Part shown: positions 45,315-51,561 of the stretch, in pieces
Numbering within the stretch: position 1 is the first letter of the stretch
Layout of the letters: every line of letters starts with the position of its first letter
Source: Escherichia coli
GTDB taxonomy: Bacteria > Pseudomonadota > Gammaproteobacteria > Enterobacterales > Enterobacteriaceae
DNA: 64,000 bases
Strand: one strand, 5' to 3'
NCBI RefSeq assembly: GCF_009931435.1
Contig: NZ_CP043414.1
Notes under the pieces: generated by a model
What the model saw: the letters and a program-made list of their open reading frames with translations, nothing else
Told to the model about the DNA's origin: nothing
Databases searched by the model: none
Translations under genes and position numbers: made by a program

Positions 45315-46676
45315 ATGAAACTAAAGACCACATTGTTCGGCAATGTATATCAGTTTAAGGATGTAAAAGAGGTGCTGGCTAAAGCCAACGAACTGCGTTC
45401 GGGGGATGTGCTGGCGGGCGTTGCAGCGGCAAGCTCACAGGAGCGCGTGGCTGCAAAGCAGGTGTTGTCGGAAATGACCGTAGCGGACATCCGCAATAAT
45501 CCGGTGATTGCCTATGAAGATGACTGCGTGACGCGACTGATTCAGGACGACGTTAACGAAACGGCCTACAACCAGATTAAAAACTGGAGCATCAGCGAAC
45601 TGCGTGAGTATGTGCTGAGTGATGAAACCAGCGTTGACGACATTGCTTTTACCCGCAAAGGGCTGACCTCGGAAGTGGTCGCGGCGGTAGCGAAGATTTG
45701 CTCTAACGCGGACCTGATCTACGGCGCGAAGAAAATGCCGGTAATCAAAAAGGCCAATACAACTATTGGTATTCCGGGCACCTTCAGCGCCCGTTTGCAG
45801 CCAAACGATACCCGCGACGACGTGCAAAGTATCGCCGCGCAAATCTACGAAGGGCTTTCTTTCGGGGTGGGCGATGCGGTGATCGGCGTTAACCCGGTGA
45901 CTGACGACGTGGAAAACTTAAGCCGCGTGCTGGATACCATCTATGGCGTGATCGACAAATTCAACATTCCAACCCAGGGCTGCGTGCTGGCGCACGTCAC
46001 CACCCAGATCGAAGCGATTCGTCGCGGTGCGCCGGGCGGGCTGATTTTCCAGAGTATCTGCGGCAGTGAAAAAGGGCTGAAAGAGTTTGGCGTAGAGCTG
46101 GCGATGCTCGATGAAGCACGCGCAGTGGGCGCAGAGTTTAACCGTATCGCCGGGGAAAACTGCCTCTACTTCGAAACCGGGCAGGGTTCTGCGCTATCGG
46201 CGGGCGCTAACTTCGGTGCAGATCAGGTAACGATGGAAGCGCGTAACTACGGGCTGGCACGTCATTACGATCCGTTTATCGTCAACACCGTAGTGGGCTT
46301 TATTGGGCCAGAGTATCTCTACAACGACCGGCAGATTATCCGTGCGGGCTTAGAAGATCACTTTATGGGCAAACTGAGCGGCATTTCTATGGGCTGTGAC
46401 TGCTGCTACACCAACCACGCTAACGCTGACCAGAACCTCAACGAAAACCTGATGATCCTGCTCGCCACCGCAGGCTGCAACTACATCATGGGGATGCCGC
46501 TGGGCGATGACATCATGCTCAACTATCAGACTACGGCCTTCCACGACACCGCCACTGTGCGTCAGTTACTCAACCTGCGCCCGTCACCGGAGTTTGAACG
46601 CTGGCTGGAAAGCATGGGCATTATGGCAAACGGTCGCCTGACCAAACGGGCGGGCGATCCGTCACTGTTCTTCTGA
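45315..46676 (+). CDS. eutB: ethanolamine ammonia-lyase large subunit EutB
   Basis: 453-aa ORF starting 11 nt after the eutA stop. Confidence 0.95.
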   Translation: MKLKTTLFGNVYQFKDVKEVLAKANELRSGDVLAGVAAASSQERVAAKQVLSEMTVADIRNNPVIAYEDDCVTRLIQDDVNETAYNQIKNWSISELREYVLSDETSVDDIAFTRKGLTSEVVAAVAKICSNADLIYGAKKMPVIKKANTTIGIPGTFSARLQPNDTRDDVQSIAAQIYEGLSFGVGDAVIGVNPVTDDVENLSRVLDTIYGVIDKFNIPTQGCVLAHVTTQIEAIRRGAPGGLIFQSICGSEKGLKEFGVELAMLDEARAVGAEFNRIAGENCLYFETGQGSALSAGANFGADQVTMEARNYGLARHYDPFIVNTVVGFIGPEYLYNDRQIIRAGLEDHFMGKLSGISMGCDCCYTNHANADQNLNENLMILLATAGCNYIMGMPLGDDIMLNYQTTAFHDTATVRQLLNLRPSPEFERWLESMGIMANGRLTKRAGDPSLFF

Positions 46677-46696
46677 TGACGCGGAGATAACACATC

Positions 46697-47584
46697 ATGG
46701 ATCAAAAACAGATTGAAGAAATTGTACGCAGCGTGATGGCGTCAATGGGACAAGCGGCCCCCGCGCCGTCAGAAGCAAAATGCGCCACTACCACCTGTGC
46801 GGCACCGGTGACCTCGGAAAGCTGCGCGCTGGATTTAGGTTCCGCGGAAGCAAAAGCGTGGATTGGCGTTGAAAACCCGCATCGCGCAGACGTATTAACA
46901 GAACTGCGCCGCAGCACCGTGGCTCGCGTCTGTACCGGTCGTGCTGGTCCGCGTCCGCGTACCCAGGCGCTGTTGCGTTTCCTGGCCGATCACTCTCGTT
47001 CGAAAGACACCGTACTGAAAGAAGTGCCGGAAGAGTGGGTGAAAGCGCAGGGCTTGCTGGAAGTCCGCTCTGAAATTAGCGACAAAAATCTCTATCTGAC
47101 TCGCCCGGATATGGGCCGCCGCTTGTGTGCAGAGGCTGTTGAAGCGCTGAAAGCGCAGTGTGTTGCCAATCCGGACGTACAGGTGGTTATTTCCGATGGT
47201 CTGTCTACTGATGCGATCACCGTGAACTATGAAGAGATTCTGCCACCGCTGATGGCGGGCCTGAAACAGGCCGGGTTGAAAGTCGGCACACCGTTCTTTG
47301 TGCGTTACGGTCGCGTGAAGATTGAAGATCAGATTGGCGAACTTCTTGGCGCGAAAGTGGTGATCCTGCTGGTGGGTGAACGTCCGGGGTTGGGGCAGTC
47401 AGAAAGTCTCTCCTGCTACGCCGTTTACTCGCCGCGTATGGCAACCACCGTTGAGGCCGACCGTACCTGTATCTCTAACATTCACCAGGGCGGCACGCCG
47501 CCGGTTGAAGCCGCAGCCGTCATTGTGGATTTGGCGAAACGTATGCTGGAGCAGAAAGCATCCGGCATCAACATGACCCGATAA
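46697..47584 (+). CDS. eutC: ethanolamine ammonia-lyase small subunit EutC
   Basis: 295-aa ORF with N-terminal amphipathic peptide [17 protein letters not shown]. Confidence 0.95.
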
Positions 47585-47593
47585 GGAGGCATC

Positions 47594-48253
47594 ATGCCAG
47601 CTTTAGATTTGATTCGACCGTCGGTAACCGCCATGCGGGTGATTGCCTCTGTTAACGCCGAATTTGCGCGTGAACTGAAATTGCCGCCGCATATTCGTAG
47701 CCTCGGGCTGATTTCTGCTGATTCCGATGACGTCACCTACATTGCGGCTGACGAAGCGACCAAGCAGGCGATGGTTGAAGTCGTGTATGGTCGCTCGCTG
47801 TATGCGGGAGCCGCACACGGCCCGTCACCGACTGCCGGTGAAGTGCTGATTATGCTCGGGGGGCCAAACCCGGCGGAAGTGCGTGCTGGTCTGGATGCGA
47901 TGGTTGCGCATATTGAAAATGGCGCGGCTTTCCAGTGGGCTAACGACGCGCAAGATACGGCATTCCTGGCACATGTAGTTTCGCGTACCGGTTCTTATCT
48001 CTCATCAACCGCCGGGATCACGCTTGGCGATCCGATGGCGTATTTGGTGGCACCGCCGCTGGAAGCGACCTACGGCATTGATGCAGCGTTGAAATCTGCC
48101 GACGTGCAGCTGGTGACCTATGTCCCGCCACCGTCTGAAACCAACTACTCGGCAGCATTTTTAACCGGTAGCCAGGCCGCGTGTAAAGCAGCCTGTAACG
48201 CCTTTACCGATGCAGTGCTGGAAATCGCGCGTAATCCAATCCAGCGTGCGTAA
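47594..48253 (+). CDS. eutL: ethanolamine microcompartment shell protein EutL (tandem BMC domain)
   Basis: 219-aa ORF. Confidence 0.95.
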
Positions 48254-48265
48254 CGGAGGTTGCCG

Positions 48266-48766
48266 ATGATCAATGCACTGGGATTGCTGGAAGTGGACGG
48301 CATGGTCGCCGCGATAGATGCAGCTGATGCCATGCTCAAAGCAGCTAACGTTCGTCTGCTCAGTCACGAAGTGCTTGACCCTGGTCGCCTAACGCTGGTG
48401 GTGGAAGGCGATCTGGCGGCGTGTCGTGCGGCGCTGGACGCAGGTTGTGCTGCCGCGATGCGTACCGGGCGTGTCATCAGCCGTAAGGAGATCGGTCGGC
48501 CAGACGATGACACCCAGTGGCTGGTTACTGGCTTTAACCGCCAGCCGAAGCAATCCGTAAAGGAACCCGACGCGCCAGTTATCGTCGCGGAATCTGCTGA
48601 CGAGTTGTTGGCGCTGTTAACATCAGTACGTCAGGGAATGACGGCAGGAGAAGTGGCTGCCCACTTTGGCTGGCCGCTGGAAAAAGCCAGAAATGCGCTC
48701 GAACAGCTCTTTTCTGCCGGGACGTTACGTAAACGCAGTAGTCGTTATCGTCTCAAGCCCCATTAA
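48266..48766 (+). CDS. eutK: ethanolamine microcompartment shell protein EutK (BMC domain plus C-terminal helix-turn-helix-like domain)
   Basis: ORF track 48260..48766; start at the third codon gives MINALGLLEVDGMVAAIDAADAMLKAA..., 166 aa. Confidence 0.9.
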   Translation: MINALGLLEVDGMVAAIDAADAMLKAANVRLLSHEVLDPGRLTLVVEGDLAACRAALDAGCAAAMRTGRVISRKEIGRPDDDTQWLVTGFNRQPKQSVKEPDAPVIVAESADELLALLTSVRQGMTAGEVAAHFGWPLEKARNALEQLFSAGTLRKRSSRYRLKPH

Positions 48767-48811
48767 CCTGTCGGAGGTGCCGGGTGTCCTACAACACCCG
48801 GCATTAACATC

Positions 48812-49864
48812 ATGAAAAAGACCCGTACAGCCAATTTGCACCATCTTTATCATGAACCCTTACCCGAAAACCTGAAGCTCACGCCGAAGGTCGAAGTGGA
48901 TAATGTTCATCAACGGCAAACAACGGATGTCTATGAACATGCTTTGACGATTACCGCCTGGCAGCAGATTTACGATCAGCTGCATCCGGGCAAGTTTCAT
49001 GGTGAATTTACGGAAATTCTACTCGATGATATTCAGGTTTTTCGTGAATACACCGGTCTGGCGCTGCGTCAGTCGTGCCTGGTCTGGCCGAACTCGTTCT
49101 GGTTTGGCATTCCGGCGACACGCGGTGAGCAGGGATTTATCGGTTCGCAATGTCTGGGAAGCGCAGAAATAGCGACGCGCCCTGGAGGAACCGAGTTTGA
49201 ATTAAGTACGCCGGACGATTACACGATCCTTGGCGTGGTGCTTTCTGAAGATGTCATCACCCGTCAGGCTAACTTTTTGCATAACCCGGAAAGGGTGCTG
49301 CATATGTTACGTAACCAGTCGGCGCTGGAAGTGAAAGAGCAGCATAAAGCCGCGCTGTGGGGCTTTGTCCAACAGGCTCTGGCGACATTTTGCGAGAACC
49401 CGGAAAATCTCCATCAGCCTGCAGTGCGAAAAGTGCTGGGGGATAATTTGCTAATGGCGATGGGGGCGATGCTGGAAGAAGCGCAGCCAATGGTGACGGC
49501 GGAAAGTATCAGCCACCAGAGTTACCGTCGCTTGTTGACCCGCGCGCGTGAATATGTGCTGGAGAATATGTCCGAACCGGTAACCGTGCTGGATTTGTGC
49601 AATCAACTGCATGTCAGCCGCCGCACGCTACAAAACGCGTTTCACGCTCTTTTAGGCATTGGCCCAAACGCGTGGCTGAAACGCATTCGCCTGAACGCCG
49701 TGCGCCGCGAACTGATAAGCCCGTGGTCGCAAAGTACAACGGTCAAAGATGCCGCCATGCAGTGGGGATTCTGGCATCTGGGGCAATTCGCCACGGATTA
49801 CCAGCAACTGTTTGCCGAGAAGCCGTCTCTGACGCTACATCAGCGGATGCAGGAACTGGAGTGA
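48812..49864 (+). CDS. eutR: AraC-family transcriptional activator of the eut operon EutR
   Basis: 350-aa ORF with C-terminal AraC-type helix-turn-helix. Confidence 0.9.
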
Positions 49865-50298: not shown

Positions 50299-51561
50299 CT
50301 AAGATTGCTGATAAGACGTCGCTGTTGTCCGGCACTCCGGGCAGATAAACGCGTAAATTATCCCTTCGCCATATTGTTCAATATCGGCATAATCCAGTTG
50401 CGCAAGAAACATCATTGTGTGGGAACATTGCGGACAGAGAGGATATTCCGCGTCCTGAATCCAGGTTGGATGCCCGCCAAGTTGCGAGAAAGAGACAGGT
50501 AAAAATGGGTCTGCGGCAAATAACGGTGACCTAAGGTTTCCCTGTCTCATGCTGTTTACAGGGAGTCGACGCCATTCCGATACATCATCCGGCAGCTAGG
50601 CAGGCGGGATATTTTTTGCAGACAAATGAGCGTTACCCTTTGAGTCCATGTAGCCGAAAATGGTGCTGTAGGCGGTGCAACATTCGCAAGTCACGACGCG
50701 AAAACTGCCGTTATCGCTAAGACCCGTTGCCTTCAGGTCAACGTCGAAAAGATTTGTTAGGGGCAATGCGCACTTTGGACAGGTATCGCTGCGTTCATCA
50801 ACAACACGCAAAGCTTCGCAAGACCCGGTGCTTTTCATCTCCAGATGAAAACATTGAGGAAAATAGAGATTACGCCTTTGATCTTCAGCGGTTAACTCCC
50901 AACCGGCCTCATGCGCATATTCTTCTGGCGCGATGTAAAGTGAACTGCGCCACAGCGGCGGGTTATTGCGCCAGTAGGCAAAACGTTCAACAACAACGTC
51001 ATCCCCAATCCATGCCAGACATTGCAGAATACAATTTCTGTTTTCTGCATCATCCTCAACCCGTTCTAACAGCGTATCGCGAACATCCGCTGGGGCGCGG
51101 TGGAAAGGCAGAGGAGAATAAGCGTCTAAATCATCATAAGAGATCCACTCTCGTAAATATGCATCCAGATTTGCCTGGGTAAACGCCGCCAGACAAAGAC
51201 AAATCTCCTGAGCGTGTTCATATTCACCAGACGCAAAGCGTTCTGTGGCGTAATCAGCCATCAGCTGCGCTTGATCGGCGGTCAACTGTTGATACAGGGC
51301 ATCGGTGGGAGCGGGGCAGGGAGTCCAGTCGATTAACGCATCGAATTTCCGTGGCTGGTGAACTAATTTCAGCATGGCAATCGGATCGCTTAGCCCAGCA
51401 AACACATTCACGGTCTTTTTATTTTTCCTGATATATTCATCGTGCTCACGCTGCTGTTGTGCCTGAACGCAGGGCATACAGTATCCGTCAGTACGCGCAG
51501 CGGTTTCCGGAAGAATGGTTGATGTACAAGCGGGGCTTTTACAGGGAATACGGTGAGTCAT
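50299..51561 (-). pseudogene. Cys-rich multi-zinc-ribbon protein gene with tentatively DUF1963/YwqG-like C-terminus; 420-codon frame interrupted by one in-frame TAG at 50596-50598
   Basis: ORF track entries 50596..51561 (321 aa) and 50299..50550 (83 aa) are in the same frame; the 45 nt between them read through as LPDDVSEWRRLPVNS; AAGGAG Shine-Dalgarno 8 nt upstream of ATG 51561; Cys pairs CKSPAC..CMPC, CPKC..CECC and CPQC..CPEC. Confidence 0.6.

Follow-up and report, generated by a model that had tools for sequence, protein, structure and literature searches.

The window analysed here, a 64,000-nucleotide (nt) stretch of Escherichia coli DNA (assembly GCF_009931435.1, contig NZ_CP043414.1), contains a complete ethanolamine (eut) operon of 17 genes in the order eutS-P-Q-T-D-M-N-E-J-G-H-A-B-C-L-K-R, spanning positions 34979-49864 (+). 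Here we describe the N-terminal peptides of two of the encoded enzymes, the ethanolamine ammonia-lyase small subunit EutC and the acylating acetaldehyde dehydrogenase EutE, which are almost certainly known encapsulation peptides, each of about 20 residues, of the EUT1-type ethanolamine microcompartment. A preliminary description of the window had placed such peptides at the starts of both proteins, and this is where they lie, in codons 1-20 of eutC (46697-46756, +) and at the opening of eutE (from position 39033). The definition of an encapsulation peptide applied throughout is that of Kinney 2012 and Aussignargues 2015 (PMC4594438): a terminal extension, typically of 15-20 residues, that forms an amphipathic helix, is joined to the catalytic domain by a linker and is found only on compartment-associated homologues.

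The eutC gene (46697..47584, +) begins with an ATG 21 nt past the eutB stop codon and encodes a protein of 295 amino acids (aa), in which the ammonia-lyase small subunit domain (PF05985, E=3.7e-82) starts only at residue 65. Residues 1-19 are letter-identical to the EutC1-19 signal sequence of Salmonella LT2 printed in PMC3299773, which answers the alignment with the characterised Salmonella peptide that the preliminary description had proposed, and residues 1-32 are those of the E. coli PDB sequence (5ysn_B differs at two residues only, T33 and L216). An AlphaFold2 model built on a 40-sequence alignment contains a helix at residues 3-18 (46703-46750), with a mean predicted local distance difference test score (pLDDT) of 84 over residues 1-10 and 73 over residues 11-20, followed by a stretch with pLDDT <50 (residues 19-41) and then a confident core. 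The aliphatic residues I6, I9, V10, V13, M14 and M17 fall inside a 140-degree arc of this helix. The window has 250 open reading frames (ORFs) with a length of 60 aa or more, and of these EutC alone combines I/L/V/M/F at positions 6, 9, 10, 13, 14 and 17 with ten interleaved positions free of such residues, a pattern expected at a rate of 2e-5 per protein from the window composition.

The peptide is followed by a poorly conserved, flexible linker (codons 19-43, 46751..46825, +), which is delimited by its low pLDDT, by high column entropy and gaps in the alignment, by the Pfam start, and by the 3any-type PDB chains of E. coli ethanolamine ammonia-lyase, in which the small subunit comprises residues 44-295 only. 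The distance of about 46 residues from the helix to the Pfam domain lies inside the published range of 36-91 (PMC4594438). The enterobacterial linker also carries three cysteines (C29, C34 and C43; residues 29-43, 46781-46825), which are kept in Citrobacter and Pseudocitrobacter, with C43 present even in Photorhabdus, and are not conserved outside the enterics; the linker around them is otherwise unconserved.

The eutE gene (39033..40436, +) encodes a 467-aa protein of the aldehyde dehydrogenase family (PF00171 from residue 34), whose nearest PDB relatives are microcompartment-type aldehyde dehydrogenases. The protein opens with the peptide MNQQDIEQVVKAVLLKM, or in longer readings MNQQDIEQVVKAVLLKMQSS and MNQQDIEQVVKAVLLKMQSSDTPP. 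Its AlphaFold2 model, built on 23 sequences, predicts a helix at residues 3-21 (mean pLDDT 80 for residues 1-10 and 70 for 11-20), and a coil at 22-31 with pLDDT <50 at 21-24, with the dehydrogenase fold starting near residue 32. The encapsulation peptide is thus assigned to codons 1-21 (39033..39095, +) and a short linker, of about 10 residues and variable length in an indel-rich region of the alignment, to codons 22-31 (39096..39125, +). The predicted helices of EutC and EutE both lie at the extreme N-terminus, and the finding that would have counted against the preliminary description, peptides predicted to be non-helical, was made for neither. EutE has six hydrophobic positions in the register and arc of EutC, plus an extra leucine (L15) on the polar face. 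Residues 1-17 are identical to those of Citrobacter and Pseudocitrobacter EutE, and residues 18-24 differ (QSSDTPP in the window vs KDSSQPV in Citrobacter).

The N-termini of EutC and EutE share 6 identities in residues 2-20 (7/20 over residues 1-20), and at least 6 identities were seen in only 7 of 2485 N-terminus pairs drawn from the long ORFs of the window. Neither gene conversion nor a recent duplication linking the segments that encode the two peptides is supported, the DNA being identical at 30/60 positions and the shared V10 and V13 using different codons. Likewise, the ACATC found directly upstream of both ATG codons was considered as a shared translation element and is attributed to chance, as it is not kept in Citrobacter, Klebsiella, Morganella, Photobacterium or Marinobacter. 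A comparison of EutC-EutE peptide pairs gave no signal of co-evolution (mean identity 5.89 for pairs from one genome vs 6.25 for pairs from two, permutation p = 0.81).

The helical-wheel analysis that had been proposed as a check was carried out, with results that are modest for EutC, weaker for EutE and not decisive alone. The Eisenberg hydrophobic moment (muH) of EutC residues 3-18 is 0.495, a value reached by 588/20000 composition-preserving shuffles (p about 0.03), and the N-terminal 11-mer of EutC has the highest moment among the 17 operon proteins. For EutE the corresponding muH is 0.374, reached by 2834/20000 shuffles (p about 0.14), and its N-terminal 11-mer is no better than those of EutL, EutD or EutB. 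We therefore rejected the hydrophobic moment or helical wheel as a sole test, since it does not discriminate alone. The amphipathicity of the EutE peptide is supported by the register itself, which is kept in 13 EUT1-type EutE proteins.

The surrounding genes are those of a compartment-type locus. The 3.3-kb piece covering the eutC region was matched in 5374/5426 complete E. coli genomes, and the RefSeq annotation of the best match (an E. coli chromosome, 98.6% identity) lists the identical 17 genes with the same order and lengths, including the starts and lengths of eutC and eutE. Each eut ORF of the window has its RefSeq length and a single terminal stop, such that all 17 genes are intact. 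The gap between eutA (43900-45303, length as in the same annotation) and eutB is 11 nt, and the operon lacks a prophage insertion of the kind reported within the eut operon of K-12 BW25113 (PMC11334477). The signature enzyme is represented by EutB and EutC, both recognized by Pfam, together with the reactivase gene eutA. The large subunit gene eutB (45315..46676, +) has its domain (PF06751) over residues 12-444, with no extension and no peptide of its own. The shell proteins are encoded by eutS (34979..35314, +; length and position as annotated), eutM (38334..38627, +; hexameric bacterial microcompartment (BMC) protein BMC-H, PF00936, E=2.2e-29), eutL (47594..48253, +; tandem BMC domains, PF00936 in two stretches) and eutK (48266..48766, +; as annotated, 99% identical by tblastn), and the vertex protein by eutN (38734..39021, +; BMC-P, EutN/CcmL domain PF03319, E=2e-30); EutS and EutK are 99-100% identical to the annotated genes, and EutQ has its cupin domain.

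Judged from its sequence, the locus is a compartment-type (EUT1) ethanolamine operon with intact genes, in which both peptide-bearing enzymes retain intact tags and the EutQ adaptor is present. The preliminary description had gone further and regarded the peptides as support for a fully functional locus; the compartment type and the intactness of the genes bear this out, while full function goes beyond what a sequence can establish, the evidence being consistent with it. In E. coli W3110, Eut compartments and growth on ethanolamine plus B12 have been demonstrated (PMC11334477). In the inflamed intestine, ethanolamine use favours the growth of gut-dwelling E. coli and Salmonella.

The EutC peptide is already known in its exact sequence form, and there is nothing new in the feature itself. 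The Salmonella LT2 EutC1-19 or 1-20 peptide (Choudhary 2012, PMC3299773; Yang et al. 2025, PMC12487888) and the W3110 EutC1-20 peptide (PMC11334477) have the same residues 1-19, position, gene, operon order and EutQ contacts as the peptide of the window, from which they do not differ within the peptide. The Salmonella EutE peptide occupies the same gene and position, in a register that matches EutC, and its identity to the EutC peptide is 40% (PMC12487888) vs 7/20 in the window.

The published experiments on these peptides address both sufficiency and necessity. EutC1-19 of Salmonella LT2 is sufficient to bring enhanced green fluorescent protein (EGFP), as well as β-galactosidase, into Eut shells of both native and recombinant origin (PMC3299773), and in E. 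coli K-12 W3110 EutC1-20 fused to GFP forms mobile puncta upon eut induction (PMC11334477). Deletion of Salmonella eutC codons 2-19 leaves EutB diffuse in the cytosol, deletion of eutE codons 2-21 leaves EutE diffuse, and neither mutant grows on ethanolamine (PMC12487888). EutB is reported to piggy-back on EutC, and truncation of the EutC N-terminus makes E. coli ethanolamine ammonia-lyase soluble (PMC4594438, citing Akita 2010 for the latter). For the window, sufficiency, necessity and EutQ binding are taken by analogy from this literature on an identical EutC and a near-identical EutE peptide, and would be expected to hold to that extent. The identity with the validated EutC1-19, the predicted helices and the conserved register together agree with the assignment of both peptides to the microcompartment-targeting kind. 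Such peptides are routinely used to load engineered Eut compartments with foreign enzymes.

The most likely binding partner is EutQ (233 aa; 35781..36482, +; PF06249 at residues 85-232), assigned from the reference annotation. Its reading frame opens with a GTG inside eutP and shares the last 26 nt of that gene (35781-35806), as in Salmonella, where eutQ codons 1-9 overlap eutP. Isothermal titration calorimetry (ITC) and nuclear magnetic resonance (NMR) showed that Salmonella EutC1-20 binds EutQ with a dissociation constant (Kd) of 6.35 uM through the N-terminal helices H3/H4, binding being abolished by L89A and V93A. EutE1-20 is reported to occupy this site with weaker binding, and the contacts reported are EutQ E64, R67, Q75, L89 and V93 with EutC residues I6, V10, V13 and M14 (PMC12487888). 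In the window EutQ, an offset of +4 matches all 5/5 contact residues (E68, R71, Q79, L93 and V97; mapped by offset, not by alignment with Salmonella EutQ), while other offsets from 0 to 8 match at most 1/5. EutQ is 233 aa long in the window vs 229 aa in Salmonella, and an alignment with Citrobacter and other enterics places the length difference in a flexible region and has the contact residues conserved. The N-terminal part (1-103) of the adaptor is present, with the contact residues retained under this inferred mapping, and both peptides probably dock on the H3/H4 region, which is encoded by codons 66-103 (35976..36089, +).

These observations suggest a scheme in which each peptide is a short amphipathic α-helix, joined flexibly to the catalytic domain by its linker, with an aliphatic ridge (I6, I/V9, V10, V13, M/L14 and M17) along one face. 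This ridge would dock on H3/H4 of EutQ, whose H1/H2 are proposed to bind the EutM/EutL shell, enabling EutQ to bridge cargo and shell, and EutB would enter as a passenger of EutC. The same ridge may also allow peptide-bearing enzymes to stick together, forming a cargo core. Since the EutQ contacts are kept and the experiments were carried out on the same peptide, docking on EutQ is the most likely mechanism.

The conservation of the peptide was examined in 80 EutB-anchored loci from species-representative genomes (EutB identity 58-99%; Salmonella is not among them). In EutC proteins from shell-encoding loci (n=40, spanning Proteobacteria, Bacteroidota/Ignavibacteria, Firmicutes, Myxococcota and Fusobacteria, and including related sequences), positions 6, 9, 10, 13, 14 and 17 are I/L/V/M/F in 95-100%, interleaved positions are hydrophobic in 0-12%, and residues 18-43 are high-entropy and gap-filled. 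A motif of five positions, lying upstream of the core of EutC, was found in 60/68 EutB-anchored loci with at least one shell-gene match vs 1/8 without, the lone shell-less locus with the motif being a 2.7-kb contig with no flank. In four Myxococcota loci and one other (L055), EutC has a strong N-terminal amphipathic helix (MDERELRELVRAVV, 11-mer moment 0.92), and a EutL-like protein is the sole shell-gene match within 10 kb, with no EutM, EutN, EutS or EutK matches; the shell genes of these five may be dispersed elsewhere in the genome.

When 1.84 billion cluster representatives were searched exhaustively, 91 full-length EutC proteins (50%-cluster representatives) were retained. The motif is absent from the short-form proteins (0/31; at most 40 residues before the core) and present in its strict form in 32/60 long-form proteins (41-126 residues), the remaining 28 being judged by eye to be mostly near-matches, one alanine off. 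Two of three short-form contexts inspected have no BMC-domain gene (PF00936) in 10-19 kb, and the third contig is too short. For EutC, the extension goes with compartment-associated homologues, and these results reproduce a published count of 125 versus 22 sequences (PMC4594438).

For EutE, the N-terminal motif is present in EUT1-type loci (n=13, from Proteobacteria and one Bacteroidetes; e.g. MDQKEIENVVKAVLASM and MDQQQIEEIVRRVVLQL), while in Firmicute-type loci the EutE homologue has no N-terminal extension and instead carries a C-terminal one with the same spacing (e.g. EEVVRKILREMTK and EKLIAEIVAQVIKSMNK). The C-terminal form was seen in ten loci from Firmicutes and other EUT2-type operons. 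This switch of the EutE peptide between N- and C-terminus according to locus type has been stated previously (PMC4594438).

A group of five Photorhabdus species provides a contrasting case, in which eutA-eutB-eutC lies beside cobalamin-synthesis genes, with EutC starting at about position 11384 of each locus, and no shell gene or eutQ is present within about 10 kb on either side. This is in line with the eutABC and cob genes, and no pdu cluster, described for P. luminescens (PMC2266911). Relative to the window proteins, identity is 88% for EutB and about 80% for the core of EutC, while the EutC N-termini are homologous, degraded and non-amphipathic (MNQKQIEENVSNVVSGQ, MNQKPIKTCADNAIFSQ and MNQEQIKKNANNMVSDQ), with I9 replaced by N or C, a helix-breaking proline at position 5 in two of the five, and a linker shorter by about 7-11 residues. 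Klebsiella and Morganella EutC, with a core identity similar to that of Photorhabdus and with shell genes present, keep all hydrophobic positions. Comparison of these sequences suggests that the Photorhabdus pattern looks like that expected from relaxed selection after compartment loss. We lean, by a small degree, towards the view that the EutC peptide is kept only by selection from its compartment partners, with Photorhabdus as a natural deletion experiment. If true, relic and intact peptides could be compared to obtain a residue-by-residue map of the constraint imposed by EutQ and the shell. No paper describing the Photorhabdus EutC peptide relic was found in the literature searched, and the relic is the only mildly new element of this analysis; it would constitute evolutionary evidence, independent of experiments, for a hydrophobic face kept solely for encapsulation.

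Three other explanations of the two N-termini were weighed. It is improbable, though worth considering, that the peptides are captured by direct contact with a shell protein (EutS, or EutM, EutL or EutK through their C-terminal helices or interfaces, as proposed for PduP with PduA/PduJ), with EutQ not the primary receptor. Models of direct peptide-shell binding have been reviewed (PMC4594438), and in E. coli carrying only Salmonella EutSMNLK and no EutQ, EutC1-19-EGFP localized to shells, with EutS necessary and sufficient and the EutS-G39V variant failing (PMC3299773). In native Salmonella, however, deletion of eutS spares assembly, while deletion of eutQ or of its H3/H4 region (62-99) parts cargo from shell (PMC12487888), and the window EutQ keeps the residues, L89 and V93 in Salmonella numbering, whose substitution by alanine abolished EutC1-20 binding to H3/H4 in the ITC and NMR work of the same study. 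Somewhat more plausible, if still the lesser possibility, is that the peptides mainly aggregate cargo through hydrophobic helix-helix nucleation of a core, with shell recruitment being secondary or performed by other proteins. Polar aggregates of EutE and EutBC form without shells and have been ascribed to their peptides (PMC12487888), peptide-bearing enzymes aggregate heterologously and become soluble after peptide removal, including N-terminally truncated E. coli ethanolamine ammonia-lyase (PMC4594438 citing Akita 2010), and the 3any-type PDB chains lack residues 1-43. Against a purely aggregative role, EutC1-19-EGFP is diffuse without shells and captured only with them (PMC3299773), and the EutC peptide binds EutQ specifically with micromolar Kd (PMC12487888). 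Aggregation of cargo is thus best seen as a second function compatible with targeting rather than as a replacement for it.

That the N-termini are ordinary enzyme parts, or amphipathic by chance, and play no part in targeting has a negligible probability. The moment of EutE residues 3-18 is not significant against shuffles, and the comparable moments of the EutL, EutD and EutB 11-mers also speak for chance, but both Pfam domains begin past the peptides, the strict EutC pattern is rare by expectation, the register, unlike the linker, is conserved from phylum to phylum, and the motif is missing from short-form EutC and has decayed in the Photorhabdus loci that lack shell genes. This conservation pattern and the experiments on an identical peptide (PMC11334477, PMC3299773, PMC12487888) exclude an origin by chance or without function.

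Several points nevertheless weigh against the identification of both N-termini as encapsulation peptides docking on EutQ. The hydrophobic-moment test is marginal for EutC and more so for EutE, whose L15 lies on the polar face. The strict motif is failed by 8/68 shell-bearing loci, and the comparative counts are not phylogenetically independent. The mapping of EutQ residues depends on the +4 offset rather than on a Salmonella alignment, and the receptor itself is disputed, being EutS in recombinant E. coli (PMC3299773) vs EutQ in native Salmonella (PMC12487888). In addition, we infer by analogy that this strain would behave like Salmonella or W3110.

The peptides of PduP and PduD, enzymes of the 1,2-propanediol compartment, show the same hydrophobic spacing (L..LI..IL in PduP), with cross-targeting between the two systems. 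PduP1-18 and PduD1-18 are likewise N-terminal helices of about 18 aa followed by a linker, borne by an aldehyde dehydrogenase and by the middle subunit of a B12-dependent signature enzyme, respectively. They differ from EutC and EutE in belonging to another operon, not seen in the window, and in their proposed receptor, the C-terminal helix of PduA/PduJ/PduK and not EutQ (PMC4594438). The C-terminal peptides of CcmN of β-carboxysomes and of EUT2-type Firmicute aldehyde dehydrogenases have the same amphipathic helix and spacing at the opposite terminus. In EUT2-type loci the N-terminus of EutQ is truncated (PMC12487888), and the receptor of the C-terminal peptides there probably differs, for this reason, from the EutQ N-terminal domain.

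The N-terminal extension of EutG (codons 1-19; 41273..41329, +), MQNELQTALFQAFDTLNLQ, is identical to K-12 EutG1-19 and serves as a negative comparator. Like the EutC and EutE peptides, it is a predicted N-terminal helix of about 20 aa on a EUT1 cargo enzyme. It was rejected as a third encapsulation peptide, its K-12 twin having failed to target EGFP (PMC3299773). The extension has no linker or clear amphipathicity (PMC4594438) and is insufficient for targeting of superfolder GFP (PMC12487888).

A scan of the window with Rfam found no family overlapping the EutC or EutE peptide-coding regions; the sole matches are two naRNA4 elements (RF02564, REP/BIME-derived), at 42515-42596 (+) and 17691-17767 (-). 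The former occupies most of the 216-nt spacer between eutG and eutH, and accounts for the minus-strand ORFs starting MCNPPGRIRR in that spacer, while the latter lies upstream of the operon. Downstream of eutR, a DUF1963-family gene (within 50299-51561) contains a TAG at 50596-50598 (-) in place of the TGG (Trp) of the closest E. coli reference, splitting a 420-aa coding sequence into ORFs of 321 and 83 aa; by its sequence this is probably a strain-specific pseudogene.

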